In this document: one piece after another, positions 1 through 32,509 of the stretch
Numbering within the stretch: the first letter of the stretch is position 1
Layout: each line of letters starts with the position of its first letter
From: a virus
Taxonomy: Duplodnaviria; Heunggongvirae; Uroviricota; Caudoviricetes
Direction: 5' to 3' (one strand)
DNA length: 44,246 bases
Virus record (IMG/VR): IMGVR_UViG_3300045988_013393
Location: 1-44,246 of that record
Notes under the pieces: model-generated
The model's database searches: none
The model's input: the letters and a program-made list of their open reading frames with translations, nothing else
What the model was told of the DNA's origin: nothing
Translations under genes and position numbers: made by a program

Positions 1-84
1 ACCTGTTACACCACCTGTTACACCACCTGTTACACCACCTGTTACACCACCTGTTACACCACCTGTTACACCACCTGTTACACC
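1..84. repeat. Tandem direct repeat, 12-bp unit ACCTGTTACACC, 7 copies; array continues at window end (44192-44246)
   Basis: Seven perfect head-to-tail copies at 1-84; same unit and phase family at the 3' end of the window, consistent with a circular/permuted assembly broken inside the array. Confidence 0.9.
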
Positions 85-216
85 AGCACGGTATTGCACA
101 CCAGCTTTCCACGCCCGCCACGCGAGACGCGTCTTAACGTTCAGGTACCCTTTCTTTGAACCTTTGTTAACCGGCAGACCCTCGACTACAGCCCACCGTT
201 CAAATGCTTCTCTCAT
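1..216 (-). CDS. N-terminal part of small (GVTG)n repeat protein (ORF runs off window start, resumes at window end)
   Basis: ATG at 216-214 preceded by GAGGA RBS; reads MREAFERWAVVEGLPVNKGSKKGYLNVKTRLAWRAWKAGVQYRA then in-frame GVTG repeats through the 12-bp array; no stop before position 1. Confidence 0.4.
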   Translation of the reverse strand, partial: MREAFERWAVVEGLPVNKGSKKGYLNVKTRLAWRAWKAGVQYRAGVTGGVTGGVTGGVTGGVTGGVTGGVTG

Positions 217-219
217 AAC

Positions 220-411
220 TTAGTCCTCATCATCTTCTAAGTCAGGGTACACTATGAAATCTCCAGGCCTTTGCAACTCAGCGCCAGCCATAAAATAACC
301 AAGTGCTTCGGCCCTTTCGGAATCTGTTTTAAACTCAGACAAAGGGTATCTTTCATAGAACTTGTTAATTAATAACGCCTGGTCAAACTTAGTCGCATCG
401 TAACCGCTCAT
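220..411 (-). CDS. Hypothetical small protein (63 aa), acidic C-terminus LEDDED
   Basis: ORF with ATG start; ATGA overlap with the upstream gene (translational coupling). Confidence 0.45.
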   Translation of the reverse strand: MSGYDATKFDQALLINKFYERYPLSEFKTDSERAEALGYFMAGAELQRPGDFIVYPDLEDDED

Positions 412-602
412 AACTCTACCCCATGGTGCTTAAGGAAACTGTTTAACTTGTACTCACGGTACTGTACGGACGCTTTAGCGCGAGCGACAAACCATGCCTT
501 TGAGGAAAAATATGGCGTACTCTCCCATGTATCGAGAGCTAATTTAGCGTTACTTAATCCGCGACGTAGACGCTCAAGGCGTAATTGGTTATACGGACTC
601 AT
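408..602 (-). CDS. Hypothetical small protein (64 aa)
   Basis: ATG start, ATGA-coupled to neighbours. Confidence 0.45.
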   Translation of the reverse strand: MSPYNQLRLERLRRGLSNAKLALDTWESTPYFSSKAWFVARAKASVQYREYKLNSFLKHHGVEL

Positions 603-871
603 ACCAACCCCATCTTCTCTTTAACGTGCACCCAAAACTCACCACAATACCAGCACCACATAAGATTAGGTGTCTCGCGCACCCAACCATAATCCTTTCG
701 GGCACGAATCGGAATAATGCCTTTAGTGAAATAATAACCCGTGCGCAGAAAATCAGGGTCGCGCGTCGCAGTGCGCCACATGTTATAAAACTGCTCCAGC
801 CCGGCACCCCGGCGCATGACCCGTATTTTATGGTTATATTCCGCTACTGTTTTCAGTTCAGTGTTATTCAT
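599..871 (-). CDS. Hypothetical protein (90 aa)
   Basis: ATG start, coupled to neighbours in the minus-strand small-gene array. Confidence 0.45.
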   Translation of the reverse strand: MNNTELKTVAEYNHKIRVMRRGAGLEQFYNMWRTATRDPDFLRTGYYFTKGIIPIRARKDYGWVRETPNLMWCWYCGEFWVHVKEKMGLV

Positions 872-1056
872 TTACGGCAACCTCCCTCAGAGTCGTCGGC
901 ACGAGCATCACGATTCGATGCCGTTCTCTCCCGCACTTCGACCATCCTTCCTACCTCTGCGGCGTAATACACATACAGCTTTATTGCGTAATCTTTATTA
1001 CTCGTGGTCTCTGTTATGGCTCCGTCTACGTATACGTCGTAAATTAATTCTTCCAT
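868..1056 (-). CDS. Hypothetical small protein (~62 aa)
   Basis: ORF track 868..1059; ATG at 1056-1054 overlaps the upstream stop. Confidence 0.4.
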   Translation of the reverse strand: MEELIYDVYVDGAITETTSNKDYAIKLYVYYAAEVGRMVEVRERTASNRDARADDSEGGCRK

Positions 1057-1238
1057 CACTTCGCCCCTTTGAATTTAAAATTGTTGCCGATGAGTTCCAT
1101 ATCCTGCGCGTATAAAACGGTGAGATACGACCCCGTTAAAGATTCAGCAAAATAGATATTATTTTCTTTGTGAAATGCGAATATGACCGCAAATTCTCCG
1201 GTCTCAGTAACCCGAACCAACTGACCCTTCTTAAACAT
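1056..1238 (-). CDS. Hypothetical small protein (~60 aa), first gene of minus-strand small-gene array
   Basis: ORF track 1056..1247 starts with GTG; ATG at 1238 has a GAGGAG RBS 8 nt upstream. Confidence 0.45.
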   Translation of the reverse strand: MFKKGQLVRVTETGEFAVIFAFHKENNIYFAESLTGSYLTVLYAQDMELIGNNFKFKGAK

Positions 1239-1272
1239 AACCCTCACTCCTCTGTCTCGTTTCGATAAGTGA

Positions 1273-1301
1273 ATAGTATCCTATTATGTTGGGGTGTGCA
1301 A
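1273..1301 (-). promoter_or_regulatory. Class B sigma70-like promoter (TTGCAC-N17-TACTAT) with embedded GAATAG-N4-CTATTA palindrome
   Basis: On minus strand TTGCAC (1301-1296), 17-bp spacer, TACTAT (1278-1273); ~60-bp element nearly identical to 22553-22581, 32481-32509 and 43865-43893. Confidence 0.5.
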
Positions 1302-1363
1302 GAGATTAGTTACGTTGCCGTTGTGATTCTTTAGGGAAGGTTGTGCCTTTATTCTTATTACTT

Positions 1364-1394
1364 GGTAACTAAAGGGCAGGCCTTAAGCCTGCCC
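1364..1394 (-). terminator. GC-rich stem-loop (GGGCAGGC-cttaa-GCCTGCCC), possible intrinsic terminator on minus strand
   Basis: 8-bp perfect stem; T-rich tract follows on minus strand (plus taactaaa 1366-1373). Confidence 0.3.
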
Positions 1395-1534
1395 AATAAT
1401 CGTTACATTTTTACGGTTGCGAATCTACGGCACATTAAGAAACAGTAGATATTTCAGCGGGTTACTTCTTTAAATGAGATTTAGATACACTTATCCTTAA
1501 ACCCCAAGGCAAGCATCTCAGTTGTCTGGGAGGG

Positions 1535-1566
1535 GTTGACGAATCCCTCGGGGAGGGTTCGTCAAC
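1535..1566. promoter_or_regulatory. Long imperfect palindrome GTTGACGAA(t)CCCT-cgggg-AGGGTTCGTCAAC in divergent non-coding region
   Basis: 13-bp arms with one bulge read directly from sequence; function unknown (operator, ori element or RNA structure). Confidence 0.3.
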
Positions 1567-1660
1567 TCCGTAATATATACAAGTCCCAAAACCATTATAC
1601 AAACATGTGTCAAGAACTTTCAATAACTTTTTTGTAAAGATTAAATATAGCAGGGATTGG

Positions 1661-1689
1661 TTGCTTTTACATCCCCGCTATCCTATACT
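1661..1689 (+). promoter_or_regulatory. Sigma70-like promoter (TTGCTT-N17-TATACT) for plus-strand early operon
   Basis: -35 at 1661-1666, -10 at 1684-1689, ~30 nt upstream of the first early gene RBS. Confidence 0.45.
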
Positions 1690-1720
1690 CAGCTCCACCA
1701 AACAAACAGGAGATATAAAA

Positions 1721-1903
1721 ATGCAACATTACATGACCCAGAATGAAGTAGCTGAGCGTATTGGGGTGACACGCCAGACAATTAATAACTGGTTGCGCAG
1801 TGGTAAATTCCCTGACTGCTGTATTAAAGTTATGGGTCGCCGTTTACCAGGAACATTTGACCGTAATAAAGTTGAAGCGTGGATTAAGGAGAATGTGAAA
1901 TGA
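1721..1903 (+). CDS. Small HTH DNA-binding protein (AlpA/excisionase-like fold suggested)
   Basis: ATG 1721 with AGGAGA RBS; sequence MQHYMTQNEVAERIGVTRQTINNWLRSGKFP is a classic helix-turn-helix; ORF track start at 1607 is likely too long. Confidence 0.55.
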   Translation: MQHYMTQNEVAERIGVTRQTINNWLRSGKFPDCCIKVMGRRLPGTFDRNKVEAWIKENVK

Positions 1904-2190
1904 AAGGTGTAATTTTCCACAATAAAGCAGAAAACGAAGTGTATATGGTTCACTCCGTGGTTGGAGAGTTCGCCCTATGCTTCAACATCTCTTGCCACCT
2001 TGATACCTACCGGCCTTTCTGCGTAGAAACAGAAATGAAGCTAATTAGCTTACGCCAGCTAAGCACCATGTCGGCGTCGCTTAACGTAAGAGATAATCTC
2101 GGGTATATCGACTTCTATTTCGGCGATGATTTGGTCGAGGAATATTTTGAAGAGTATAAAAATTTGCTGGAAGAGTTGGCTAAACGGTAA
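1900..2190 (+). CDS. Hypothetical protein (96 aa)
   Basis: ORF, ATGA-coupled to the upstream HTH gene. Confidence 0.45.
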   Translation: MKGVIFHNKAENEVYMVHSVVGEFALCFNISCHLDTYRPFCVETEMKLISLRQLSTMSASLNVRDNLGYIDFYFGDDLVEEYFEEYKNLLEELAKR

Positions 2191-2202
2191 AAAGAAACCC
2201 CA

Positions 2203-2388
2203 ATGCTAGAACGTCGGGGCCGAAGCACAAATCATCAAAGTAAGCACAAGGATTATACAATGACGAAGTTAATAGTTCCACAGTTGCGCCGCCAGAAACA
2301 CGGCGCTGATTTCTTCGCACCGGTAAAGATGAACCGCGCAATGCGTCGTATGCAGGAAGCCTTAGAACGCGCGGAGAAAAAGAAATGA
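2203..2388 (+). CDS. Hypothetical small basic protein (start uncertain, possibly 2260)
   Basis: ORF overlapping the primase start by ATGA; lysine/arginine-rich. Confidence 0.35.
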   Translation: MLERRGRSTNHQSKHKDYTMTKLIVPQLRRQKHGADFFAPVKMNRAMRRMQEALERAEKKK

Positions 2389-4592
2389 ATATTGTTTTTG
2401 CAACGCTGCGTAACACTTTCGATAAAAACCCGGTAGCCCGTGAAATGCCACTGGAGCAGTTTGTAGAGTATGTCTGCGATACATCGAAGCGCCTGTCCGT
2501 AGACCCGTCATGGACTAAGGAAGAGTACGACGCGGCCAAGATTAAGCAGAAAGCTATTGCGCCGGTTGGCGGTCGCCGTAAGAACGCGATTCTGGAAGAC
2601 AGTGTGGTTAAGTTCGATTTCGACCATCTAAACCGTACCCAGTACCGCGACCTCACCCGCAAATTCAAGAACGCGCCGTTCTTCAATATTCTGCACACAA
2701 CGGCGTCGCACCAGCACGCGTGTAAAAACGGTGACTACGCTTTCCGCGTTCTTGTACCGGCCCGCACGCCGTTTAACTCTAACGACGCGTGGATGGTGCA
2801 ACGTGCTATTTGTGCTGAGTTAGAAATAGACGAAGCATTGCGCGACCACTGCACAGAAGATGGCAACCGCCTTATCTACCTGCCGCATAAAGAGTCGAAG
2901 ATAACGGTTACAGAAGGGCGTGTTATCCGTGCCGAGCGGTACATCAAGAAAGCCGAAGAAATGGGGTTGCGTAAGCGTGAAGCTAAGACCCTTGCTGCCG
3001 ATGAGCATGGGCTTAACGCGGATATAGCGCATTTCTGCGAAGCGGAGCTTGGCCTTGACGCTTTATCTTCCGGTCGCGGGTACGAAGTGCCTTGCCCTAA
3101 CGAACACCTGCACACCGGCAAAGGCTCCACCAGCATCATGCTCGACGGTAAAGAAGTGCGCTTCGTGTGCCAGCACACAAACAACGGTGCTTGCACTGAG
3201 CTTAACCGCCGACAACATTTGGCCCTGCGTATGTGCGGCCTTCCGGACGAGCTTAACGTAGACAAGCAACCTATCAGTATTAACAGCATTCGTGCGGCTC
3301 TGCCTGATTTACCGGATGAAGAGATTGAAGAACTGCACCGCACAGAGAACGAGGAGCCTGTAACTTGTACACTGGAAGACCTTGAAGACGATGACGAGTT
3401 ACCTGAACCGGTAAAGGCTGATTTCGTCGTTGAAGGGTACATGCCGTCGGATTGCATCTGGGACATCGTCGGGGAATCCGGCACATATAAATCATTCTAT
3501 ACGCTGGGTATGATGTACCTGAGCGCCGCAGGGTACCGGTTTGCAGGCGCTGATACACAGCGTTGCCACCATTTCTATATTGACGGTGAGGGCGGTGCTG
3601 CCACACGCACCCGTATTGATGCACTCGCGGCTAAATACGGCGAGGAAGGTAAAGATTATGTACATGTCATCGATATGGGCGAAGTTGGCAAACTGAAAAG
3701 CCTGATTAAGCTAATGCGAGAAACTGCGGGTGGCGAACCCATCGGCATGGTCGCGTTCGATACTCTCAACCAGACACTGGCCCTGACGATTGATAAGTTC
3801 GACGAGAACAGTTCATCAACGGCAATCGGCATGGGTAAAGTTATCGCCATCCTTAAAGAAGTACGTGACGCAACTAAAGCCGCGGTGGGCGTCGTCCACC
3901 ATACACCGAAGGGCGGAAAGAAAGCCCGTGGCAGCGGGGCGCTGTATGCGGGTGTCGATGTGGAACTGACAATAGAACGTGCAACCGACCGTCAGATAAA
4001 CGTATACCACTCGAAATTTAAGCACGGGCCTCAACAGAAAACGGTTGGCATGGTGCTGGAGTCCGTACAGTTCCGTGAAGCGCCGCCGCCGAAAGAGTAC
4101 CGCGCGGTTGAGTTCCTGGGCAGCACAGAGGAATACGGCACAATCGTAAACCTCGACCTGCCGGAACCACACAAGGCGCTTGTTCTGATGCCGTGGGGCT
4201 TCGAGCCGTTCAAAACTGACGAGGAGAAAGAGCGGGAAGAAGGGTTAACTAACGAAGGTAAACAAAAAGTAAAGGAAGAAGTTAAACGCGGCAGGGATGA
4301 AGTAAGGAAGGAGTCGATACTTTCGGCACTGGAAGACCTGCAACAGTCAGATGACACAGGTCGCGGTTTTACTCAGCAGCAGATAGTGGCCCGTTCCGGT
4401 GACTTTTCTGTGACTAACACCCATCTTGATAAAATGCTGAAAGATGGTGAACTAATGCTAGGCTGTGATGCTAATGGCGAAGTAGTACCGAGAACGTATC
4501 GTATACCTGAAAGAATAGGGGATAGATTAAGGCCGAAGACAATATACGAACCGAATGAAATGCTAGTGGTTACTGAGGAAGATTTGGAATAG
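2385..4592 (+). CDS. Putative primase-polymerase / P-loop helicase replication protein (735 aa)
   Basis: N-terminal DxD (FDFDH) and H-rich (HTTASHQH) motifs suggest an AEP-like primase; Cys/His cluster CPNEHLH...CQH...C; Walker A GESGTYKS, Walker B MVAFD; acidic C-terminus ending EEDLE. Confidence 0.6.
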   Translation: MNIVFATLRNTFDKNPVAREMPLEQFVEYVCDTSKRLSVDPSWTKEEYDAAKIKQKAIAPVGGRRKNAILEDSVVKFDFDHLNRTQYRDLTRKFKNAPFFNILHTTASHQHACKNGDYAFRVLVPARTPFNSNDAWMVQRAICAELEIDEALRDHCTEDGNRLIYLPHKESKITVTEGRVIRAERYIKKAEEMGLRKREAKTLAADEHGLNADIAHFCEAELGLDALSSGRGYEVPCPNEHLHTGKGSTSIMLDGKEVRFVCQHTNNGACTELNRRQHLALRMCGLPDELNVDKQPISINSIRAALPDLPDEEIEELHRTENEEPVTCTLEDLEDDDELPEPVKADFVVEGYMPSDCIWDIVGESGTYKSFYTLGMMYLSAAGYRFAGADTQRCHHFYIDGEGGAATRTRIDALAAKYGEEGKDYVHVIDMGEVGKLKSLIKLMRETAGGEPIGMVAFDTLNQTLALTIDKFDENSSSTAIGMGKVIAILKEVRDATKAAVGVVHHTPKGGKKARGSGALYAGVDVELTIERATDRQINVYHSKFKHGPQQKTVGMVLESVQFREAPPPKEYRAVEFLGSTEEYGTIVNLDLPEPHKALVLMPWGFEPFKTDEEKEREEGLTNEGKQKVKEEVKRGRDEVRKESILSALEDLQQSDDTGRGFTQQQIVARSGDFSVTNTHLDKMLKDGELMLGCDANGEVVPRTYRIPERIGDRLRPKTIYEPNEMLVVTEEDLE

Positions 4593-4609
4593 GTAAAAAG
4601 AAAGGGGCG

Positions 4610-4825
4610 TTAAGCCCCTTCACCGAACGCCAGCCACTTGGCGTCTACTTCCAGCACTTCCGCCAGTTTAAACAGCGTCGCCGGGCGGACGTCCTGAGTC
4701 ACCCCAAGCGCAAGCTGGTTAATAGCGCCCTGGGAAACGCCCGCCAGAACAGCCAGACGGCGCTGGGAGATGCCGAGTTCTTTACGGCGTTGTTCTACAC
4801 GGATACCTAGTTCAGATGGTTGCAT
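4610..4825 (-). CDS. XRE-family HTH transcriptional regulator (Cro/CI-like, 71 aa)
   Basis: ISQRRLAVLAGVSQGAINQL helix-turn-helix; AAGGAG RBS; only minus-strand gene in the plus-strand early block, divergent from operator-containing promoters. Confidence 0.7.
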   Translation of the reverse strand: MQPSELGIRVEQRRKELGISQRRLAVLAGVSQGAINQLALGVTQDVRPATLFKLAEVLEVDAKWLAFGEGA

Positions 4826-4845
4826 GTCAATTACTCCTTAGTCAG

Positions 4846-4874
4846 TTGATATGTGAATAGTACCATATTAATTA
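4846..4874 (+). promoter_or_regulatory. Class A promoter, degenerate copy (TTGATA-N17-TAATTA) with GAATAG palindrome
   Basis: Upstream member of a tandem promoter pair between the XRE gene and ORF 4950. Confidence 0.4.
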
Positions 4875-4889
4875 TTTTAGAAAAGCCCA

Positions 4890-4918
4890 TTGACAAGTGA
4901 ATAGTTCGCTATTATAGT
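4890..4918 (+). promoter_or_regulatory. Class A sigma70 promoter (TTGACA-N17-TATAGT) with GAATAG-ttcg-CTATTA palindrome in spacer
   Basis: Consensus -35; same architecture at 7009 and 10777. Confidence 0.6.
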
Positions 4919-4949
4919 TAGCCTATACCAAACGAGAGGAGAGAAACAA

Positions 4950-5450
4950 ATGTTAGAACAGTTCTTAAAATTACTGGAGCGTTTCGTAGTTGCCCATGAA
5001 CTGATTGCGGCGAACAGTGCGAAACAAGTTGTTCATGCCGCCGCGCCGCTGGAAGTAGAGACGGTAGTGTATACCGAAGAATCAGCTTCCGAGTGCGAAG
5101 AAGAAACAACAAAAGAAATCACGGTTGAAGGTGAAGACGTCGTTGACACTAAACCTGCGGAGGAAGAGAAGCCGAAACGCAAGCCGCGTAAAGCTAAAGT
5201 AGAGGAACCAACGCCAGAGCCGGAAGAAGAGAAGGAAGAAGTCGATTACCAGTCTCTGCGTGACCAGATTCAGGCTATCGACGATGCAATTAACGAAGGC
5301 CCGAGCAATGCCGCGTGTGACGATTCGGATGAACTGCTAGAAGAGTTCACCGGCAAGAAGATGAAGATTGCCGCGATTAAAGACGAAGACCTGGCCGAGT
5401 ACCTGGAACGCCTGACGGCAATCAAGAACAAGTATTTCAAAGAAGAATAA
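4950..5450 (+). CDS. Highly acidic hypothetical protein (166 aa, Glu/Asp-rich)
   Basis: ORF with RBS; long acidic low-complexity segments (EEEKPKRKPRKAKVEEPTPEPEEEKEE). Confidence 0.5.
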   Translation: MLEQFLKLLERFVVAHELIAANSAKQVVHAAAPLEVETVVYTEESASECEEETTKEITVEGEDVVDTKPAEEEKPKRKPRKAKVEEPTPEPEEEKEEVDYQSLRDQIQAIDDAINEGPSNAACDDSDELLEEFTGKKMKIAAIKDEDLAEYLERLTAIKNKYFKEE

Positions 5451-5493
5451 CTATCTCGCGGCCTTCGGGCCGCTTTAACTGAGGGTCGGAATT

Positions 5494-5766
5494 ATGATTT
5501 ACCAACTCTACCGCGCCGTTGACAGGCGGGATAACATAGAGGCGTTATGGCTGTTGCGTGCGCCGTCCGGTGCACACCAGATGGAAGAGATGGCGTACTT
5601 AGGAAAAGTACCACGGCCTAAAGATATAGGCCGTCACGTGTCGCAGATTAAGCGCACGACTTTTGCCAAGCCTGACTTTTATGTCTTCGAGTCGATGTAT
5701 GGGTGGGCTATGCACTGCGACCATAAGACACGACATTTAATTGACCAGTGGGAGAGCAGGGTATGA
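5494..5766 (+). CDS. Hypothetical protein (90 aa)
   Basis: ORF, ATGA-coupled to the downstream nuclease gene. Confidence 0.45.
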   Translation: MIYQLYRAVDRRDNIEALWLLRAPSGAHQMEEMAYLGKVPRPKDIGRHVSQIKRTTFAKPDFYVFESMYGWAMHCDHKTRHLIDQWESRV

Positions 5767-7004
5767 TTCTAAAAGAACGCGGTGGCAATAACGACGTACA
5801 CGCATTACTGTCGCCATCCGGTGCTAAAAAGTGGCTTACCTGCGCCGCATCGCTGGCCTGTGAAAAAGACATTCCAAATACGTCAGGTAAAGCCGCCGTA
5901 TTGGGTACCGCCATGCACACCATAGCTGAGATGCACTTAAACCAGTACATCAAAGGCACTGCGCTGCCGTTAGAGCGTGAAGTCGGCGCTTACGTGCTGG
6001 ATGAAGGTAAAGGCCAGATTAAGGCGCTAATCAGCCCGATGAAAGGCGCGGTACTGATTACGGCGGATATGATTGAGCAAGTGCGCAAGTATACCGACTA
6101 CTGCAAAGCGATTATCGATGTAGCGACTTACGCCAAGCTGGAAATGCGGGTAAATCTTACCGAGGTATTGCATCCGGGCTACGAAGGCGTTGAGACATTC
6201 GGAACCGCTGACCTTGTTGCCGTTCAGGAACTGGCGAACACCGAAGAGCACATGCTCATTATTGGCGACCTGAAAACAGGACGGCATCGTGTCGAAGCGA
6301 AAGAAAACAAGCAGCTTATGCTTTACGCGCTGGGTGTTTATCGCCGACTAAAGCGACGTTATAGCATAACAACCGTTCGTCTGGTCATCTTCCAGCCTTA
6401 CGCTGGGGGCGCGTCAGAGTGGGACATCTCGGTTGAGGGCCTTGAACTGTTCGCTAAGTTTGCGCAGAAACGCGCGCTGTTGGCCCTTGATGCTTATTCC
6501 CGCGGCAAGAAGAACCTGAAAGCGTCGGACTTCAAGCCGTCTGTCGATGGTTGTCAGTGGTGTCGGTTCTCTGAACAATGCGCTGCGCGTACAAAAACCG
6601 TTAACTCGGTACTGGCGGAAGAACTGGAAGACGATTTTGCGCTGGAACTTACGCCGGAGCAACTCGTAGCTGAGTATGAGAAGTTGCCGTTGTTGCGCCA
6701 GCACATCGACAAGGTTGAGAAAGCTATGGCCGCCGCGTTGCATTCCGGTAAGAAAGTGCCAGGGTACAAACTGGTTGAAGGTCGTCCTGGTAATCGTGCG
6801 TGGAAAGATGCGGAGAAAGTAGCAGAACTCTACGGCGACAAGCTGACTAAAGAAGTGCTCATGTCACCTACCGAAGCTGTTAAAGTCATACCGGAAGAAG
6901 AACTGAAAGACTTCATTACCCGTAAGCCCGGCGCGCCATGCGTCACAACGGCGGATGACAAACGTCCTGAGTGGAATCAGGTTAGTGAAGAAGATTTGGA
7001 ATAA
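5763..7004 (+). CDS. PD-(D/E)XK exonuclease, Cas4/RecB-like with Fe-S cysteine cluster
   Basis: N-terminal Cys (WLTCAAS), D...DLK motif (ADLVAV...IGDLKTG), QxxxY (QLMLYALG), CQWCRFSEQC cluster; C-terminus ends SEEDLE. Confidence 0.65.
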   Translation: MILKERGGNNDVHALLSPSGAKKWLTCAASLACEKDIPNTSGKAAVLGTAMHTIAEMHLNQYIKGTALPLEREVGAYVLDEGKGQIKALISPMKGAVLITADMIEQVRKYTDYCKAIIDVATYAKLEMRVNLTEVLHPGYEGVETFGTADLVAVQELANTEEHMLIIGDLKTGRHRVEAKENKQLMLYALGVYRRLKRRYSITTVRLVIFQPYAGGASEWDISVEGLELFAKFAQKRALLALDAYSRGKKNLKASDFKPSVDGCQWCRFSEQCAARTKTVNSVLAEELEDDFALELTPEQLVAEYEKLPLLRQHIDKVEKAMAAALHSGKKVPGYKLVEGRPGNRAWKDAEKVAELYGDKLTKEVLMSPTEAVKVIPEEELKDFITRKPGAPCVTTADDKRPEWNQVSEEDLE

Positions 7005-7008
7005 AGTG

Positions 7009-7037
7009 TTGACACCTGAATAGTTAGCTATTATATT
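7009..7037 (+). promoter_or_regulatory. Class A sigma70 promoter (TTGACA-N17-TATATT) with GAATAG-ttag-CTATTA palindrome
   Basis: Consensus -35/-10 spacing, upstream of the SSB-like gene. Confidence 0.6.
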
Positions 7038-7093
7038 TCTAATCACTGGCCGGGCAGCTTCCCGGAGTAAACTGAAAACTGAGGAATCGAGAT

Positions 7094-7720
7094 ATGGGTA
7101 TTAAACTGAATCTGCGTAAAGTAAACACTGCATGGGTTAACGTATTTGAACGCGAAAAAGACCGTGAAAACGATGACGGCTCAATCACTAAAGGCCAGTA
7201 CAGCGCAACGATTATCATGCCGCCGGACCATGCTCAAATCGACGCGCTCTACGACACTGTTTACGCTGTAGTCGAAGAAGCATTGGGTGCCGCCGCTGCC
7301 GAAAAATGGATGAAGTCTAACTACGGCGAAGGTAAGCACATGGATAAATGTGCGATTAAAGATATTGCTGAGCGCGACAATCCGTTTGAAGACTTCCCGG
7401 AAGGCTTCTACTTCAAAGCGAAGGCTCAGAAACAGCCACTGATTGTAACCTCTAAAAAAGGTGAGACTCAGGTAGAACAGGACTTCAACGTAGACGGCGA
7501 ACAGATTGAAGGGGAACAGGTTTACAGCGGCTGCGTTGCTAACGTAAGCGTCGAAATCTGGTTCAGCCAGAAATACAAAGTCCTCGGCGTCAATCTGCTG
7601 GCGATTAAATACGTTGGTGAAGGTAAAGCGTTTGGTGGTTCTAAAGTTGCTGCGAGCGTCGATGACCTGGAAGACGACGAAGAAGACGAAGCACCGCGCC
7701 GCGAACGTCGCCGCCGCTAA
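7094..7720 (+). CDS. Putative ssDNA-binding protein (208 aa) with acidic-then-basic C-terminal tail
   Basis: Position between nuclease and DNA polymerase; C-terminus DDLEDDEEDEAPRRERRRR; assignment by context and composition only. Confidence 0.4.
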   Translation: MGIKLNLRKVNTAWVNVFEREKDRENDDGSITKGQYSATIIMPPDHAQIDALYDTVYAVVEEALGAAAAEKWMKSNYGEGKHMDKCAIKDIAERDNPFEDFPEGFYFKAKAQKQPLIVTSKKGETQVEQDFNVDGEQIEGEQVYSGCVANVSVEIWFSQKYKVLGVNLLAIKYVGEGKAFGGSKVAASVDDLEDDEEDEAPRRERRRR

Positions 7721-7740
7721 TATCTGAATCAATTTAACTA

Positions 7741-7762
7741 GGGCCCTTCATTGGGCCTTTTT
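7741..7762 (+). terminator. Intrinsic terminator (GGGCCC-ttcatt-GGGCC + TTTTT)
   Basis: GC stem followed by T5 immediately after the SSB-like gene stop. Confidence 0.6.
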
Positions 7763-7781
7763 ACTAAGGGTCGAAAATAAT

Positions 7782-9980
7782 ATGCCTAATCTATTGTATC
7801 TGGATACTGAGACATTCTCTGAAGCGGACTTAAAGAAAGTCGGATCGTATGCGTACGCGGAGCATCCGACAACCGAGATTATAATTTGTACATATGCCAT
7901 TGATGATGGGCCCGTAGAAGTATGGGATTGCACTTCCGAACCGGTAATGCCAATAAGCCTCCGCATTGCGCTGCGCAATGTTATGCGCGGACGTATGAGA
8001 ATTGTAGGTCATAACTTTTTAATGTTCGACAGGCTTGTTATGAAGCACTGCTGGGGCGTTGATATCAAGCCAAGAAACACCATTGACACGATGATTAGAG
8101 CGTTTCGTCACGCGTTGCCGGGTTCACTTGACGCATTGTGCGAAGTGCTGGGCGTATCTGCGGACAACGCGAAAGACAAACGCGGTAAAGCACTGATTCA
8201 GCGTTTTTCTAAACCGACGCCGAAGAACTACAAAATCCGCCGTTACACCGCCGAAACTCACCCAGATGAGTGGGCGCTGTTCATCAAGTACGCCGTGAGC
8301 GACATCACTGCGATGCGTGAAGTCTTCCATAAGCTGCCGCGTTGGGGTAACTCCGAGTTCGAAGACCGTGTACTGGAACTTGACCAGTTAATCAACGACC
8401 GCGGGTTTAAGGTTGATGTGGCGCTGGCGGAAGCTGCGATTGAGGCCGTAGAGAAACACAAGGCGCAGTTGCAGGAAGAAGCCCAACGCAAATACGGCGG
8501 CTCGCTAACTGGCAAAGACTTTCTACCTATTCTGCGGGAACTGGCCCCCGCGCACCGTATTCATAACGCGCAGAAGTCGACACTCAATGACCTGCTGGCG
8601 GATGATGATTTGCCAGATGACGCCCGCACGATTATCGAAATGCGCCTCGGGGCCGCGTCTACAGCATCGACGAAATATAACCCGCTGCTGCTGGGTCGCT
8701 CGTCGGACGACCGTCGTCGCGGTTGCTTGCAGTACGGCGGGGCAAAACGCACTTTGCGATGGGCGGGTAAAGGCTTCCAGCCGCAGAACCTGGCGCGCGG
8801 GTACTATCACGATGATGAACTGGATAAAGGCATTTCAGCGTTACTTAAGGGCCGTGCGCATCGCCGTTTTGATGTGGCCAAGCTAACGGCATCTACGGTT
8901 CGTAGCTGCATTATCCCGGAAGCCGGGCATAAGTTTGTCGTCGCCGATTACTCTAACGTTGAGGGTCGTGGGCTTGCGTGGCTGGCGGGCGAAGAAACCG
9001 CGCTCGATACGTTCCGCGCCGGACTGGATATTTACTGCGTAACCGCGGGCAAGATGTTTGGTATGGACCCTGATGACATTAAGAAAAACTTCAAGGAAAT
9101 CAGACAGATAGGCAAAGCATGCGAACTGGGTCTCGGCTACGAGGGCGGCGTCGGAGCGTTCGTTACGTTCGCCAAAAACTTAGGCCTCGACCTTATTGAG
9201 ATGGCAAAAACAATGGACGGGACTTTCCCCGACCACATCTGGGCTGCTACCGCACGTGGGTATGAGTGGGCGCGTATTCAGGAAGCCAAGCGACCACCGC
9301 ATCCCGGTGAAAAGGATGACCGACCATCATATATTCTGGACAAGAAAGTGTGGCGCACATGTGATGCAATCAAGCGTATGTGGCGCGAGTCACACCCGGA
9401 AACAGTAGCGTTCTGGCGCGACCTTAAAGATGGAATTTTAGCCGCTGTTCGTAATCCTGGTCGTGAATTTTGGGCCGGGGCACACTTGCGCCGGAATGGT
9501 GAAAGGGCTATCCGCATATGGCGTACCGTAGAATTTGATTCGTCGGGCAGGAAGGTTCCTGGCTGGTGGTTGTGTATGGAGTTGCCGTCAGGCCGTATCC
9601 TCTCGTATCCGGGAATCGGCGTTAGTGTGACAAAGGAAACAGACGAAGACGGACGGGTAAACACGAATGTGCGAATCAAGTATCAGGGTGAAAACCAGTT
9701 AACCCGCCAATGGACTACCCTGTACACCCACGGCGGCAAAGCCTGCGAAAACATTGTTCAGGCGCTGTGCCGTGATTTACTCGCATATGCGATGATTAAT
9801 GTTGAGGGTGGCGGGTATCCCATCGTGCTTTCGGTACACGATGAACTGGTGTGTGAAACTCCGGATACCCCAGAGTACACGGTGGCCGAACTGGAAAAAT
9901 TAATGTGTTCTCTGCCTGAGTGGGCAGAAGGCTTCCCTCTTGTCGCGGAAGGTGCGGAGATGAAGCGCTATGCTAAGTAA
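7782..9980 (+). CDS. DNA polymerase, family A, with 3'-5' exonuclease domain
   Basis: Exo I motif LYLDTETFS; polymerase motif A VVADYSNVEGR; motif C LSVHDELV. Confidence 0.85.
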   Translation: MPNLLYLDTETFSEADLKKVGSYAYAEHPTTEIIICTYAIDDGPVEVWDCTSEPVMPISLRIALRNVMRGRMRIVGHNFLMFDRLVMKHCWGVDIKPRNTIDTMIRAFRHALPGSLDALCEVLGVSADNAKDKRGKALIQRFSKPTPKNYKIRRYTAETHPDEWALFIKYAVSDITAMREVFHKLPRWGNSEFEDRVLELDQLINDRGFKVDVALAEAAIEAVEKHKAQLQEEAQRKYGGSLTGKDFLPILRELAPAHRIHNAQKSTLNDLLADDDLPDDARTIIEMRLGAASTASTKYNPLLLGRSSDDRRRGCLQYGGAKRTLRWAGKGFQPQNLARGYYHDDELDKGISALLKGRAHRRFDVAKLTASTVRSCIIPEAGHKFVVADYSNVEGRGLAWLAGEETALDTFRAGLDIYCVTAGKMFGMDPDDIKKNFKEIRQIGKACELGLGYEGGVGAFVTFAKNLGLDLIEMAKTMDGTFPDHIWAATARGYEWARIQEAKRPPHPGEKDDRPSYILDKKVWRTCDAIKRMWRESHPETVAFWRDLKDGILAAVRNPGREFWAGAHLRRNGERAIRIWRTVEFDSSGRKVPGWWLCMELPSGRILSYPGIGVSVTKETDEDGRVNTNVRIKYQGENQLTRQWTTLYTHGGKACENIVQALCRDLLAYAMINVEGGGYPIVLSVHDELVCETPDTPEYTVAELEKLMCSLPEWAEGFPLVAEGAEMKRYAK

Positions 9981-10101
9981 ACTGATTATCGCGGTACTGG
10001 CGGGATTTGCCGCCGGTGTCTACTGTCACGAGGGCCAATACGGCATGATTGTCGCCGTATTATGCATGTTTATCGCAATTTATCTGTGGGTGCTGGAATG
10101 A
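9970..10101 (+). CDS. Small hydrophobic membrane peptide (43 aa)
   Basis: ATG overlapping the polymerase stop; MLSKLIIAVLAGFAAGVY...IAIYLWVLE; below the ORF-track size cutoff. Confidence 0.3.
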   Translation: MLSKLIIAVLAGFAAGVYCHEGQYGMIVAVLCMFIAIYLWVLE

Positions 10102-10187
10102 AAATTTACTGGTTATACGAAGAAGACTGTCGAATCTGTCCGCGTTGCGGGATTGAGCATACGAAACGTGAGGGGTGTGTATTATGA
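10098..10187 (+). CDS. Tiny Cys-rich ORF (29 aa, CxxCxRC, zinc-ribbon-like)
   Basis: ATGA-coupled on both sides; MKIYWLYEEDCRICPRCGIEHTKREGCVL. Confidence 0.25.
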   Translation: MKIYWLYEEDCRICPRCGIEHTKREGCVL

Positions 10188-10378
10188 GTAACAAACCATT
10201 TAGTAAGAAACTAGCCGCGTTAGTGGATATGCCGGAATGGGAATTTATCATGGTAATGGGAGATGGGTTCTTTAGTGACGTTTGTGCCGGGTGTACGCAC
10301 AAAGGCGTTTACTATTCGGAACACGACATCTATCAAGCGTACTTCCTGCGTAACCCAGATGCGGAGCCGTTGTTATGA
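10184..10378 (+). CDS. Hypothetical protein (64 aa)
   Basis: ATG 10184 overlapping the upstream stop; ORF track 10175..10378. Confidence 0.4.
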   Translation: MSNKPFSKKLAALVDMPEWEFIMVMGDGFFSDVCAGCTHKGVYYSEHDIYQAYFLRNPDAEPLL

Positions 10379-10527
10379 CGATGTTTGTATTTTGGTCGAT
10401 AGTAACCATGCTCGCGCTGTTACTCAGTGCGGGAATAGCTTCGATGTTCTATTATGGCCTGTTCTTTAAGTTTGTTGGTGTTGCCGTTCTCGGCGGGGCT
10501 TTCATCACCTGGATTCTGCGCTCATGA
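10375..10527 (+). CDS. Small membrane protein (50 aa)
   Basis: ATGA-coupled; two hydrophobic segments. Confidence 0.3.
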   Translation: MTMFVFWSIVTMLALLLSAGIASMFYYGLFFKFVGVAVLGGAFITWILRS

Positions 10528-10808
10528 CCCCGGAGGGCAAGATTCAGAAATACGCAAAAGAGCGATTCGAGGCCCTGGGGGGCCTCGTACGCAAATTGTC
10601 GTACGAAAATAGAGTGGGCGCTCCTGACCTGCTGGTAATTCTCCCCGGCGGCATCGTATGGTTCGTCGAGGTTAAGAAAGACGAAAATACGAAGCCTGAC
10701 CTGCACCAGTTACGAGAGCACGAGCGGATGCGTAAACGTGGTGCAAATATTTTTGTCGTCGGGTCGTTCAAACAGGTTGACGACCTAATAGCGAACTATT
10801 ATAGTTAG
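10524..10808 (+). CDS. VRR-NUC domain nuclease (PD-(D/E)XK)
   Basis: GAPDLLVILPGGIVWFVEVKK matches the VRR-NUC signature; sits upstream of an SNF2 helicase, a common phage pairing. Confidence 0.65.
   Translation: MTPEGKIQKYAKERFEALGGLVRKLSYENRVGAPDLLVILPGGIVWFVEVKKDENTKPDLHQLREHERMRKRGANIFVVGSFKQVDDLIANYYS
10777..10805 (+). promoter_or_regulatory. Class A promoter (TTGACG-N17-TATAGT) with perfect TAATAG-cgaa-CTATTA palindrome
   Basis: Lies inside the 3' end of the VRR-NUC gene, upstream of gene 10839. Confidence 0.5.
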
Positions 10809-10838
10809 TCCTACACCAACAATATAAGGAATTTAGAA

Positions 10839-11033
10839 ATGAAACATGAATACGACCGCAAACCAGCACGTGACATCGTACCGGGCGACATGATTTTCAA
10901 CGTTAAGACCCGTCGTCCTGTTGCCGTTGATACAGTGTTCGTCGAGTCGAACGGTAAACTGGTCATCGAAGATGTAACCGGTAACGTTACGGCGTTTGGG
11001 CGGAAGGAATTGGTACTCTACGTTAAGGGTTGA
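10839..11033 (+). CDS. Hypothetical small protein (64 aa)
   Basis: ORF with RBS AAGGAA; DIVPGDMIF motif resembles small ORF 40137-40301 (DLVPGDVLF). Confidence 0.45.
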   Translation: MKHEYDRKPARDIVPGDMIFNVKTRRPVAVDTVFVESNGKLVIEDVTGNVTAFGRKELVLYVKG

Positions 11034-12460
11034 TTATGTCTAAATTTATCCGTCGAGAGTACCAGAAGCTCATGACTTCGTTCATGCTGCAACACCCGCG
11101 CTGTAATATTTGGGCCTCGATGGGCGCGGGCAAAAGTTCCGCAACGATGTGGGTTCTAAACCGCCTGTTCCGCAACGGGCAGCTTACGGAAGAGGACCGC
11201 GTGTTAATCCTCGCCCCGTTACGTGTTGCATCCGGTACGTGGCCCGCAGAACAAACTAAGTGGGGTTTCCCTTGTCTGAGTGTCGTCGATGCGACCGGTA
11301 GCGAGAGGCGCCGCATCGCGGCGCTGGAGTCGGACGCTAACGTGGTATGCACCAACTACGAAGTTATCGAGTGGCTGATTGACTACTACGGCAAAGACGA
11401 CTGGCCTTTTACGGTTATCGTTGCCGATGAGAGCACGAAACTGAAATCATTCCGCAGTCGTTCAGGCGGCAGCAAGCGGGCAAAGGCGCTTAGCAAGGTT
11501 GCGTTCGGTAAGGTCAAGCGTTTTATAAACCTGACGGGAACGCCATCACCTAACGGCCTCAAAGACTTGTGGGGCCAGAACTGGTTTATCGACGCTGGCG
11601 AGCGCCTCGGCTCATCGTACACGGCATTCACCGACCGCTGGTTCAACTCGGTACAGAAAGGCAAATCGGCTATGGCGCGCGAATACCACGCTCGCCCTGG
11701 TGCGGATAATGAAATTCACCAGAAGATGAAAGACATCAGCCTGACGATTGACGCCGCCGAGTGGTTTGGTTGCGAAGCGCCGATTATTGTACCGGTTGAA
11801 ATTGACCTGCCGAAGAAAGCACGTCAGGCGTACATCGATATGGAGGAAAAGTTATTCGCGGAACTGGAGAGCGGAGAAGTTGAAGCGGCTAACGCGGCTG
11901 CGAAGACATCTAAGTGTTTGCAGATTGCGTCCGGTGCCGTGTATGTATCAGGGCCAGATGGCGAAGCAACGAAAGACTGGGAGAAAGTGCATGACACGAA
12001 GCTGGACGCGCTGGAGTCCATTGTTGAAGAGTTGCAGGGTGCGCCGTTACTGGTGGCCTATCAGTTCAAGCATGAACTGGAGCGCATCCTTAAGAGATTC
12101 CCACAAGCCCAGGCGTTTGCCAAAGGGGCCAAGGGTAATAAGCAGATGGAAGCGTGGAACCGCGGTGAAATCGAGATTTTGTGCGTGCATCCCGCATCAG
12201 CCGGCCATGGTTTGAATTTACAGGACGGCGGCCATCATCTGGCGTTCATCTCGCAAGGCTGGAACCTTGAGCACTATTTGCAGGTCGTGGAGCGTATAGG
12301 TCCGGTCCGCCAGAAACAGGCAGGCCACGAACGACCGGTGTTCCTTTATCACATCGTTGCTAAAGACACGCTGGACGAGGTTGTTGCCGCGCGTACCGAC
12401 GAGAAGAAAACGGTGCAGGAAGAGTTGCTTAATTACATGAAGAGACGAGGTAAGAAATGA
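11030..12460 (+). CDS. SNF2/DEAD-like superfamily 2 helicase
   Basis: Walker A MGAGKSS, DExx box VADEST, C-terminal helicase domain. Confidence 0.7.
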   Translation: MIMSKFIRREYQKLMTSFMLQHPRCNIWASMGAGKSSATMWVLNRLFRNGQLTEEDRVLILAPLRVASGTWPAEQTKWGFPCLSVVDATGSERRRIAALESDANVVCTNYEVIEWLIDYYGKDDWPFTVIVADESTKLKSFRSRSGGSKRAKALSKVAFGKVKRFINLTGTPSPNGLKDLWGQNWFIDAGERLGSSYTAFTDRWFNSVQKGKSAMAREYHARPGADNEIHQKMKDISLTIDAAEWFGCEAPIIVPVEIDLPKKARQAYIDMEEKLFAELESGEVEAANAAAKTSKCLQIASGAVYVSGPDGEATKDWEKVHDTKLDALESIVEELQGAPLLVAYQFKHELERILKRFPQAQAFAKGAKGNKQMEAWNRGEIEILCVHPASAGHGLNLQDGGHHLAFISQGWNLEHYLQVVERIGPVRQKQAGHERPVFLYHIVAKDTLDEVVAARTDEKKTVQEELLNYMKRRGKK

Positions 12461-12642
12461 AGCTTAATGTTGGAGACGAAATATACAGCGTACATTCATT
12501 CAATACTTTCACAATCGAGTACATATCAAAAGACGGCAACAGCTTTGTTTTGGTAAGCTCAGACGGTAAGTACGAAAATTCACGATGCTACACACTGCCG
12601 GATATAAAGCGCAGTTTCAAGAAAAGCGAAGGTAAGAAATGA
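12457..12642 (+). CDS. Hypothetical small protein (61 aa)
   Basis: ORF, ATGA-coupled. Confidence 0.4.
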   Translation: MKLNVGDEIYSVHSFNTFTIEYISKDGNSFVLVSSDGKYENSRCYTLPDIKRSFKKSEGKK

Positions 12643-12776
12643 ACGTCATAGCCCCGATCCCCGCATTGCAAAAACGTATCAAGGAACTCGAAGAAGAGGT
12701 TCTACGACTACGACAGCAAAGAGACGCCGCTAATGCGCAACTGGCGTTTGTACTGGAGAAGTTATCCGAAGATTAG
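12639..12776 (+). CDS. Small coiled-coil protein (45 aa)
   Basis: ATG overlapping the upstream stop; IKELEEEVLRLRQQRDAANAQL heptad-like; below ORF-track cutoff. Confidence 0.3.
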   Translation: MNVIAPIPALQKRIKELEEEVLRLRQQRDAANAQLAFVLEKLSED

Positions 12777-12780
12777 AGAA

Positions 12781-12807
12781 AAGGCCCCGATTGGGGCCTT
12801 AGTTTTA
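12781..12807. terminator. Bidirectional intrinsic terminator (AAGGCCCC-gatt-GGGGCCTT)
   Basis: Between convergent early plus operon and minus-strand tailspike gene; same stem reused at 25211, 33063 and 35545. Confidence 0.65.
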
Positions 12808-14799: not shown

Positions 14800-14811
14800 A
14801 TAGAGTCCTCT

Positions 14812-17367: not shown

Positions 17368-17723
17368 AATTCTATCTCCGCATAAGTTTCGCGCAAGTCT
17401 TCCAGACGGTCTAACCGTACCTGGCGACTCGCCAGCTCGCAATGACTAACCATACCGTCATAGTATACTCCGGCGTGCCAGATTACACGGTTTCTGTGCC
17501 GTGTTGCCATCAGCACGGCATCGAAGTTTTGCGGAGTTTCTACGCGTACAAGGCCTTTAGTATCTTTATGGCCTTCTTCGAAGGCGTCGTTAATCTGTGT
17601 TGGCGAAGCGACGTTAAACTCAGGCGTAAAGAGGCCTACATCCGCACGAACGTTACGGACATGGTGCCAGCAATTACGACGGCGAAAGTCGTACGGCAAC
17701 CCTGTATAAGAATTAATATTCAT
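17358..17723 (-). CDS. Tail assembly protein, lambda gpK-like (NlpC/P60-type Cys/His)
   Basis: Conserved Cys (RRNCWHHV) and His (HAGVYYDGMVSHC); position between gpL-like and gpJ-like genes. Confidence 0.55.
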   Translation of the reverse strand: MNINSYTGLPYDFRRRNCWHHVRNVRADVGLFTPEFNVASPTQINDAFEEGHKDTKGLVRVETPQNFDAVLMATRHRNRVIWHAGVYYDGMVSHCELASRQVRLDRLEDLRETYAEIEFWR

Positions 17724-18235
17724 GTGGACAAAACGCCCCGTAACAATGGGATTACTGAAGGGGTCATTAGTTCACCAGTGGCCCTTTGGTTCAACATAGG
17801 AACGCCAACGTCGGCGGTAAATAGCCCCTTTTCCTGGTTTATCGACTGTAACTCGTACACAACAGGCCCATCAGCCGGGTAAGACAAATCAGTACCAACA
17901 AAACGGCGGAATATGAATTTAGGTAGCACGGTATTATCAGGCGGTATCCTGTCCATCTCATCATCTAACTGGTTACCAATATCAGGTAATGCGAACGACG
18001 CCCGCTGGTCCATGTCGTTATTGTTGGCGGCCCCTTTAGCCTCCATAGGGGTAGCCTCAAACGTTACGACTTCTCCGGTCTCTAACGTCGCCGTCAGGTC
18101 GGAAGTTCCGCGCACAAGCAAATACCGCTTTGAAAGAAGCGGGTGTACTATCTCCAGCGTCGTGTAGTCAATTTCGCCGTCGGGATTTGAGGCCAGCTTA
18201 CGGCGGTAGGCTGCTTCTACAGATTCCTGGCTCAT
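17720..18235 (-). CDS. Minor tail protein, lambda gpL-like
   Basis: Size and position in the TMP-M-L-K-J order. Confidence 0.45.
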   Translation of the reverse strand: MSQESVEAAYRRKLASNPDGEIDYTTLEIVHPLLSKRYLLVRGTSDLTATLETGEVVTFEATPMEAKGAANNNDMDQRASFALPDIGNQLDDEMDRIPPDNTVLPKFIFRRFVGTDLSYPADGPVVYELQSINQEKGLFTADVGVPMLNQRATGELMTPSVIPLLRGVLST

Positions 18236-18238
18236 AAA

Positions 18239-19330: not shown

Positions 19331-19333
19331 TGG

Positions 19334-22552: not shown

Positions 22553-22581
22553 TTGCGCACCCCAACATAATAGGATACTAT
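22553..22581 (+). promoter_or_regulatory. Class B promoter (TTGCGC-N17-TACTAT) driving plus-strand accessory island
   Basis: Near-identical to the element at 1273-1301; conserved leader ttaactcaaacaggag before ATG 22623. Confidence 0.5.
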
Positions 22582-22622
22582 TCACTTACACCAACAATGT
22601 TAACTCAAACAGGAGCTACACC

Positions 22623-32480: not shown

Positions 32481-32509
32481 TTGCGCGCACCAACATAATA
32501 GGGTACTAT
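32481..32509 (+). promoter_or_regulatory. Class B promoter (TTGCGC-N17-TACTAT) driving plus-strand moron 32537
   Basis: Same conserved element and leader (ttaacttaaacaggag) as at 22553. Confidence 0.5.

Follow-up and report, generated by a model that had tools for sequence, protein, structure and literature searches.

We describe here the gene-free interval at positions 1302-1660 of the window, a term that stands throughout for the whole stretch of 44,246 nucleotides analysed. With moderate confidence, we read this interval as an early control region housing a non-coding unit that runs leftward from a promoter to a terminator; this terminator would also insulate the neighbouring promoter, called class B below. 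A promoter and a terminator, as predicted, lie on one strand about 220 nt apart with no credible open reading frame (ORF) between them, and they therefore have the anatomy of a non-coding transcription unit, which would yield either a discrete small RNA or a terminated or attenuated leader of the leftward operon. The sites in question, P_L2 and hairpin 1, were independently annotated as promoter and terminator by the depositors of Escherichia phage fBC-Eco01 (OM272052). One GenBank record already carries predicted promoters and a terminator at these positions, and what is new is the unit that they form, the preservation of its architecture across swapped cassettes and the compensatory evolution of its hairpins. 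The main features are the following:

1587..1366, minus strand: predicted leftward non-coding unit (~220 nt), starting from P_L2 and ending at the hairpin 1 terminator
1623..1594, minus strand: leftward promoter P_L2, TTGAAA (1623..1618), 18-nt spacer, TATAAT (1599..1594), predicted start ~1587
1532-1569, unstranded: hairpin 2, the palindrome GGGGTTGACGAATCCCTCGGGGAGGGTTCGTCAACTCC, arms 1532-1546 and 1555-1569
1365-1406, minus strand: hairpin 1 domain, inner GC stem 1374-1381/1387-1394, outer GTAAC/GTTAC stem 1365-1369/1401-1405
1301..1273, minus strand: putative class B promoter of sigma-70 type, -35 TTGCAC (1301..1296), 17-nt spacer, -10 TACTAT (1278..1273)
1661-1689, plus strand: putative rightward early promoter, TTGCTT (1661-1666), 17-nt spacer, TATACT (1684-1689)

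According to this reading, the right end of the region would bear a back-to-back promoter pair, with the early promoter at 1661-1689 directed rightward to a helix-turn-helix (HTH) gene and the replication operon, and P_L2 (1623..1594) directed leftward. The latter would transcribe about 220 nt of a highly structured non-coding RNA, opening with the palindrome as a 5' stem-loop (1569..1532), continuing through a less structured middle part with short islands conserved in all relatives, and ending, or being attenuated, at the GC hairpin and its U-rich tail (1394..1374). With ~70 bp separating it from the class B promoter (1301..1273) downstream, the hairpin 1 terminator would shield that promoter from upstream transcription.

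Anatomy of the predicted leftward unit

The features that the earlier note had named in this interval all exist, at or near the coordinates it gave, and both flanking promoters can be read from the sequence, TTGCAC-17-TACTAT leftward and TTGCTT-17-TATACT rightward. That note framed the whole 360 bp as lying between these two promoters, which is right for the flanks but overlooked the leftward promoter-like site at 1623..1594. P_L2 matches 11/12 positions of the sigma-70 consensus and sits inside the AT-rich stretch (1570-1660), the composition of which is as extreme as had been claimed (28.6% GC vs 50.3% for the genome, within the lowest 0.06% of 91-nt windows). Only three sigma-70 hits of 11/12 occur in the first 20 kb, P_L2 included; all lie in intergenic AT-rich regions, and the other two face plus-strand genes directly downstream. 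The P_L2 site is labelled “host promoter” in OM272052.

At the other end of the unit, the GC hairpin at 1374-1394 has the 8-bp arms GGGCAGGC/GCCTGCCC around a 5-nt loop or, alternatively, nine pairs around a 3-nt loop. On the minus strand, TTTAGTTAC comes after the inner stem, which makes the hairpin similar to a Rho-independent terminator for leftward transcription. Indeed, the terminator scan of this strand gave nine pairs, seven of them G-C, followed by TTTAGTTACC with five T in 8 nt, and this was the top terminator-like hit in positions 1-20000 of the window, the next-best hits being located at the ends of gene clusters. The homologue of hairpin 1 is annotated as a terminator in OM272052.

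The palindrome had been described as 13-bp arms at 1535-1566; it is present, although its true extent is 1532-1569, with 15-nt arms that are 87% complementary. It is the longest inverted repeat of stem-loop type in the window (arms at most 30 nt apart), and begins ~18 nt 3' of the predicted leftward start, in the place of a 5' stem-loop of the leftward RNA. As a whole, the minus-strand RNA 1590..1366 has a predicted folding energy of -72.2 kcal/mol, which corresponds to z = -4.9 relative to dinucleotide shuffles, while the fold of the plus strand over 1302-1720 reaches z = -3.3 against shuffles.

The interval has no coding capacity. The earlier statement that no ORF exceeds about 10 codons was incorrect, as TTG-initiated mechanical ORFs of 31-53 codons are present, along with a single ATG ORF of 25 codons (1595..1518, minus strand). 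Nevertheless, the label “non-coding” holds: these ORFs lack a Shine-Dalgarno sequence, and a plus-strand ORF at 1341-1448 is broken by 1-nt loop indels. Among the functions suggested for the region (replication origin, regulator binding sites or structured leader), the structured leader is the best supported, since an 11/12 promoter-like site and the top-ranked terminator-like hairpin, both on the minus strand, bracket the structured part and since both hairpins carry compensatory substitutions (see below).

The class B promoter would drive a leftward small-ORF operon, the first ATG of which is found at 1238, to the left of the region. Its core motif GAATAGTATCCTATTATGT is present in four copies in the window, vs 0.01 expected, each of them directly upstream of a gene. 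These copies, with TTGCRC, the 17-nt spacer ACCCCAACATAATAGGA and TACTAT, differ from one another in upstream sequence, and their conserved spacer suggests a shared regulator. They have been called phage-RNA-polymerase promoters in the fBC-Eco01 paper (PMC9825357), and the fBC-Eco01 record annotates the homologue of 1301..1273 as a PHIRE “phage promoter”. The copies have a sigma-70 -35/-10 arrangement and we would read them as ordinary sigma-70 promoters with a conserved spacer; we found no RNA polymerase gene in the window phage. The rightward promoter (1661-1689) would in turn drive an HTH_17 gene (1721-1903) and the next ORF; its homologue is annotated in PVP-SE2 and, among relatives, it co-travels with its HTH allele. 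The early expression of the HTH gene in a phage with 96% identity (PMC12645636) supports the description of the interval as a divergent non-coding control region. The class B cores and the short conserved islands of the region are located as follows:

1271-1289 (+), 22565-22583 (-), 32493-32511 (-) and 43863-43881 (+): class B core copies
1309-1332, unstranded: island 1, GTTACGTTGCCGTTGTGATTCTT, kept in essentially every relative of all sequence types and abutting the class B -35
1426-1432, unstranded: island 2, TACGGCA, conserved in all sequence types
1452-1464, plus strand: island TTTCAGCGGGTTA, similar to the integration host factor (IHF) consensus, 12/13 of WATCARNNNNTTR

Within island 1, GTTGCCGT is invariant across the types in the alignment. 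The island is missing upstream of the other three class B copies and may be an upstream activator site or a UP-type site. Island 2 and the TGCCGT of island 1 are inverted partners that stand on either side of hairpin 1. The exact IHF consensus WATCARNNNNTTR does not occur in this region of the window, but is found at the homologous position in nearly all relatives of the other types (for example around 2700-2732 (+) in loci L014-L047 and at 834-846 in L248, PVP-SE2). IHF may bind the island at 1452-1464. Island 1 also holds one minus-strand copy (1314-1321) of an over-represented octamer, ACGGCAAC, which has 20 copies in the genome over both strands, vs 2-3 expected under Markov models of order 1-3; further examples lie at 6216, 6683, 10480, 10920, 16483, 19523, 21487, 30809 and 40833. 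The related count for AACGGCAAC is 12 occurrences vs ~0.6-0.9 expected. Because the octamer copies stand in mixed frames and in both orientations relative to ORFs, a simple codon effect does not account for them. A repeated “GTAACTAA(GATAC)” or “AGATAC” motif was considered as an operator or iteron and dropped, given its modest enrichment and inconsistent placement.

Conservation and covariation in mosaic relatives

The 801 bases around 1302-1660 match 276 phage records, nearly all from Kagunavirus and Jerseyvirus (subfamily Guernseyvirinae), with fBC-Eco01 as the closest (99.1%, and 100% over 1302-1660). The region was compared in ~40 distinct versions retrieved from IMG/VR through the HTH protein and DNA patterns, together with 20 from GenBank phages. 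For a further metagenome scan, the conserved 16-mer GTTGCCGTTGTGATTC was too short a probe: most hits were soil, marine and other environmental contigs taken as chance matches, and only a few loci were relevant (L078, L086, L156 and L158).

In ~350 relatives, swapped modules make the region a mosaic, in which we distinguished types a, b and c of hairpin 1 and the module types M1, M2, M3 and the window's own for hairpin 2. Positions 1215-1332 are common to nearly all relatives and 1333-1457, containing hairpin 1, are present in ~347 records of both genera, while 1458-1656, with the palindrome, are found in only 21 Kagunavirus records (97-100% identical). Despite these exchanges, length and layout persist, as the conservation check proposed in the earlier note has now revealed. 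Most Kagunavirus-type loci have an intergenic length of ~392-429 bp, and in every type the distance from the left anchor is ~42-105 nt for one stable hairpin and ~175-290 nt for another. The place of hairpin 2 is taken by a different stable hairpin in each of the other types, and the predicted leftward start always precedes it by ~20-50 nt. All other types also keep, in position, a -35 island TTGAC directed leftward (“GTCAATA” on the plus strand), which in every type lies ~60-100 bp from the rightward promoter. The equivalent of the P_L2 -10 varies, being TAAAAT in M3 (11/12), TAAGGT in M1 (9/12) and TAAGCT with an upstream TG in M2. An alignment across types shows these versions to be very diverged homologues that have retained short invariant islands.

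A third small hairpin on the minus strand, followed by (G)TCTATT, is kept between hairpins 2 and 1 in the M1 and M2 types (for example 2772..2758 in L018 and 2763..2751 in L038, both minus strand), and the window has a weak counterpart, CCTTGGGGTTTAAGG, at ~1496-1510. It could be an internal pause site or terminator of the leftward RNA. The Jerseyviruses, with 590-1020 nt free of annotated coding sequences (CDSs) at this locus (L248, PVP-SE2, 237-1132; L252, MA12, 76-1100; also L250 and L251), bear an extra hairpin (GGGTAAGCGCTTGCCGCAAGGCAAGTGCGTTAATCCC) and repeated AGAATC-N3-4-CGGCA-like motifs between their class-B-like promoter and island 1.

Both hairpins evolve by compensatory changes. 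Covariation was tested for each hairpin within alignable families, as the swapped hairpins are not in register in a cross-type RNA alignment; RNAalifold applied to a hairpin 2 set that included Jerseyvirus gave nothing useful. For hairpin 1, three of the eight pairs changed on both sides, and 99% of the cells were paired vs 31-55% in slid controls, with a covariation score of 0.268 (at most 0.074 in slid controls) that was reached by 0/500 shuffles. Type a comprises nine stem or loop variants in which loop indels are tolerated, and its changes comprise, among others, C-G to T-A as well as A-T to G-C, the latter with each of the two single-step intermediates observed; two further double changes separate the type-b stem from type a. 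The plus-strand tail GTAACTAAA is unchanged in 19 type-a variants. For hairpin 2, in the M1 family, the flanks of which can be aligned, 5/13 pairs were compensatory and 93.5% of the cells paired (31-45% in slid controls), with a score of 0.310 vs at most 0.111 in the slid controls and 0/500 shuffles. In addition, the locus is more conserved within the window's type than the adjoining coding DNA: among 15 phages, the hairpin modules had a nucleotide diversity of 0.007-0.008, compared with 0.058 for the HTH gene and 0.045-0.05 for the flanking promoters. As far as the data allow, both hairpins thus seem to be selected as structures.

Several observations weigh against a functional leftward RNA. 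Only a few independent compensatory events were counted, among sequences that are related and from which the structures themselves had been read; likewise, the low diversity could mean that the module spread horizontally not long ago. Other types have a weaker leftward promoter (9/12 in M1, and 8/12 with the TG in M2, by manual reading and below the scan threshold), and the common type-b hairpin 1 fails the terminator scan, which types a and c pass. Genome-wide, promoter-like and terminator-like sites are no more numerous than in shuffled sequences, and the argument therefore rests on the rank and placement of these sites rather than on their number. The favoured strand also differs between types, so that no consistent asymmetry of G.U pairs on a transcribed strand was found. 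For the M2 types, fold energies and G.U pairs point to the minus strand (by 5-9 kcal/mol), whereas they point to the plus strand for the window's palindrome, which has two G.U pairs, and for Jerseyvirus; the single-step intermediates of hairpin 1 appear as G.T on either strand. Therefore, a role of the hairpins at the DNA level is possible. Finally, we found no mapped transcript ends in the literature for any Guernseyvirinae phage. The leftward promoter would nevertheless fire, and the hairpins would act in RNA rather than in DNA, if the unit is what its anatomy suggests, and its RNA may then have a role of its own.

As regards this role, a control of the HTH mRNA by the leftward RNA was considered, based on a 14/16 complementarity between 1437-1452 and the ribosome-binding region at 1701-1716, which we judged to be due to chance. 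The duplex with the HTH initiation region has an energy of -15.2 kcal/mol vs a shuffled mean of -16.6 (rank 135/137); as this does not go beyond the shuffles, the pairing was rejected. No hit at gathering thresholds was obtained with Rfam for the whole window and five related loci, and in a permissive E-value search of 1000-2000 the best sub-threshold match was Hrs12 (22.6 bits vs a threshold of 70). There are no tRNA or tmRNA genes either. A bolder proposal is that the RNA represents an undescribed non-coding family of Kagunavirus and Jerseyvirus (>350 sequenced phages), with invariant single-stranded islands, exchangeable hairpin cassettes and a dedicated role; we regard this as speculative and rather improbable. 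If true, the RNA could, for example, prime or activate replication at the adjacent AT-rich DNA or serve as a decoy against host defence, and such a dedicated role would explain the rapid turnover of hairpin cassettes at a fixed position.

Alternative explanations for the region

The possibility that the interval is an origin of replication deserves attention, although we consider it unlikely. The AT-rich segment would be the unwinding element, with transcriptional activation or an RNA primer supplied by the flanking promoters, as happens in T7 or T4; the two covarying hairpins, in single-stranded DNA, would signal to the helicase-primase where to load or prime, like ssiA/ssiB of the RSF1010 oriV. 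Positions 1590-1649 are the most AT-rich 60-mer of the genome, the helicase-primase gene begins ~700 bp downstream of the region, and the cumulative GC skew has its minimum at ~1-2 kb once the permuted ends are joined. Covariation without a consistent strand preference suits a structure at the DNA level, and both the IHF-consensus island and the long stretch without annotated CDSs in the Jerseyviruses (590-1020 nt) fit an origin. This support is circumstantial, however, as each point has a simpler explanation. The turn in GC skew coincides with a switch in gene orientation and is therefore uninformative, and the three promoters explain the AT-richness equally well, other AT-rich minima of the genome being also located at promoters. 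Although an AT-rich element is present, nothing in the region indicated an origin of the iteron-type or DnaA-dependent kind: there are no clear iterons, only weak two-copy direct repeats, and no DnaA box was noticed on reading the sequence (no dedicated scan was run). Moreover, the hairpins are wholly different among phages whose helicase-primase N-terminal parts are 98-100% identical. Because the hairpin sequences are free to vary, recognition by the helicase-primase would need to rely on structure or on the short conserved islands. We found no origin mapping for Kagunavirus or Jerseyvirus in the literature.

The known origins invoked here resemble the region in part. The T7 primary origin consists of the promoters 1.1A/1.1B and an AT-rich segment, and the T4 origins oriF and oriG of a middle promoter and an unwinding element. 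Similarly, the window promoters adjoin the most AT-rich DNA of the genome and the phage encodes its own helicase-primase; in contrast to these origins, the AT-rich DNA lies between, and upstream of, two promoters instead of downstream of one. In the RSF1010 oriV, the single-strand initiation hairpins ssiA/ssiB are used with the RepA (AAA_25-type) helicase, and the window shares with it two conserved hairpins ~140-190 bp apart beside an AT-rich segment, as well as an encoded AAA_25 helicase. Unlike RSF1010, it lacks iterons and a RepC-like initiator, and its hairpins vary freely beside the same helicase-primase N-terminal part.

A purely DNA-level regulatory region, in which the palindrome and other dyads would be operators for the divergent promoters and no functional RNA would be made, appears distinctly unlikely. 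The half-sites of the palindrome, TTGACGAA/TTCGTCAA, are separated by about two turns of the helix, genes for two HTH regulators lie nearby, and short islands (GTTGCCGT/TACGGCA and WATCAR-N4-TTR) are conserved across all types. An operator reading is plausible for these islands, but it does not fit the two hairpins. Operators keep their sequence, yet here the stems change in a compensatory manner and entire hairpins are exchanged beside an HTH protein that is 100% identical. Indeed, loci with a 100%-identical HTH and a 98-100%-identical helicase-primase N-terminal part bear a type b or c hairpin 1 and an unrelated M2 hairpin 2, in which the TTGACGAA half-sites are absent, while the window's helicase C-terminal allele (89-98% identity) is found with several M1 hairpin versions. 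The hairpin type shows no co-variation with the alleles of the HTH, helicase-primase or leftward genes, and the palindrome half-site is not above chance elsewhere in the genome. Therefore, the palindrome does not serve these proteins as a sequence-specific operator or iteron, and the regulator binding site that the earlier note had entertained is disfavoured for it; neither covariation nor joint conservation with the adjacent HTH_17 regulator was observed. A host repetitive extragenic palindromic (REP) element or small RNA as the source of the module was ruled out, as 1333-1660 is absent from E. coli genomes.

It is also possible, but quite improbable, that the functional transcript runs rightward, as a small plus-strand RNA starting between the hairpins near a conserved -10-like island, AATAGA, and ending at hairpin 2. 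The window's palindrome is indeed better as a plus-strand hairpin (17 pairs, including two G.U that become A.C mismatches on the minus strand), several other types have a short plus-strand T run after hairpin 2, and the Jerseyvirus hairpins are 3-9 kcal/mol more stable on this strand. Against this, no plus-strand promoter of at least 9/12 exists in the window's region, GTAATATATAC follows the palindrome on the plus strand in place of a U tract, and the M2 types favour the minus strand by the margin given above. Lastly, small proteins encoded by the region, as annotated in several GenBank records, are extremely unlikely: some depositors' gene callers place plus-strand ORFs of 30-59 codons here, but these calls vary in extent among near-identical phages and are missing from other records, the loop indels shift the frame of the 1341-1448 ORF among near-identical relatives, the sequence is swapped for unrelated modules in phages with the same flanking genes, and neither a translation signal (the ATG ORFs have no Shine-Dalgarno) nor a frame conserved in relatives was found. 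The plus-strand “hypothetical protein” CDSs in L236-L247 (e.g., Bas72_0055/0056 and Bas70_0055/0056) are probably gene-caller artefacts.

Genomic setting and comparison with known systems

The window is, judging from its ends, a complete and circularly permuted genome of Kagunavirus (Guernseyvirinae). A perfect tandem array of the 12-mer ACCTGTTACACC is interrupted by the window ends, with 7.1 copies at 1-85 and ~4.5 copies at 44190-44246; on the minus strand this array codes for a (GVTG)n C-terminal repeat of a small protein. As the window starts and ends within one coding array, the record corresponds to a circular permutation of the whole genome. PhageTerm detected no fixed termini in fBC-Eco01 (PMC9825357) and the permuted record ends elsewhere, so that a genome terminus (cos or pac) at 1302-1660 finds no support.

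The region is the largest gene-free stretch beside the early genes. To its right come the rightward 60-aa HTH_17 gene, identified by Pfam, then a 96-aa ORF, a small ORF and the 735-aa helicase-primase (AAA_25, phrog_3228), for which a sequence search of the PDB gave no informative hit. In an RNA-seq study of phage K1B4 (96% identical), the HTH gene is among only four early genes and the helicase belongs to the “middle” class (PMC12645636). This fits an early rightward promoter; the study gives gene-level counts and classes only, and is therefore silent on the non-coding interval. A GC hairpin at 2190-2230, 3' of the 96-aa ORF, is labelled a bidirectional terminator in OM272052 and sits between the early HTH gene and the helicase-primase gene, which fits the K1B4 early and middle classes. 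Elsewhere, the AT-rich intergenic regions 4826-4949 and 7004-7094 bear 11/12 sigma-70-like promoters (4890-4918 and 7009-7037, both on the plus strand). The former region is divergent from a minus-strand gene for a Cro/CI-type HTH protein (4610-4825), which has its own terminator-like hairpin at 4621..4601. The fBC-Eco01 paper also reports a phage-encoded DNA polymerase I (PMC9825357).

Taken as a promoter cluster with a terminator, or as a small RNA, the element belongs to a known and fairly ordinary kind, and it would be ordinary indeed if it were merely a terminator-insulated promoter cluster. Nevertheless, Guernseyvirinae are common therapy and biocontrol phages, also used as a synthetic-biology chassis (BASEL collection preprint), and the present map shows engineers which DNA to leave undisturbed. 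It also bears on annotation, as several GenBank records carry probably spurious small ORFs here, and the label “phage-RNA-polymerase promoters” is likewise affected.

The closest parallels to the predicted leftward unit are found in other phages. The OOP RNA of lambda and the Sar RNA of P22 are phage small RNAs made from a host-type promoter and ended by a Rho-independent terminator beside the early control region. The window unit is similar in that a putative promoter of sigma-70 type is followed, on the same strand and without an intervening ORF, by a hairpin resembling an intrinsic terminator; it also adjoins early promoters, and its predicted RNA would be strongly structured. In contrast, it is ~220 nt long instead of ~70 nt, it is not antisense to any gene, and its 5' hairpin is swapped between lineages. 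In virulent phages, boundaries made of a terminator and a promoter separate temporal transcription classes, and hairpin 1 resembles such a boundary, being located ~70 bp upstream of the repeated (four copies) and probably regulated class B promoter, where it would stop early transcription before this promoter is reached; unlike the usual boundary, the upstream unit contains no gene, and the type-b hairpin lacks a canonical U tract. The arrangement is also reminiscent of lambda nut and HK022 put, in that a stem-loop RNA element would be placed shortly 3' of an early promoter and 5' of a terminator, although, unlike lambda nut, it shows no boxA/boxB arrangement and no recognisable N-like protein accompanies it, so that the likeness is one of resemblance only.

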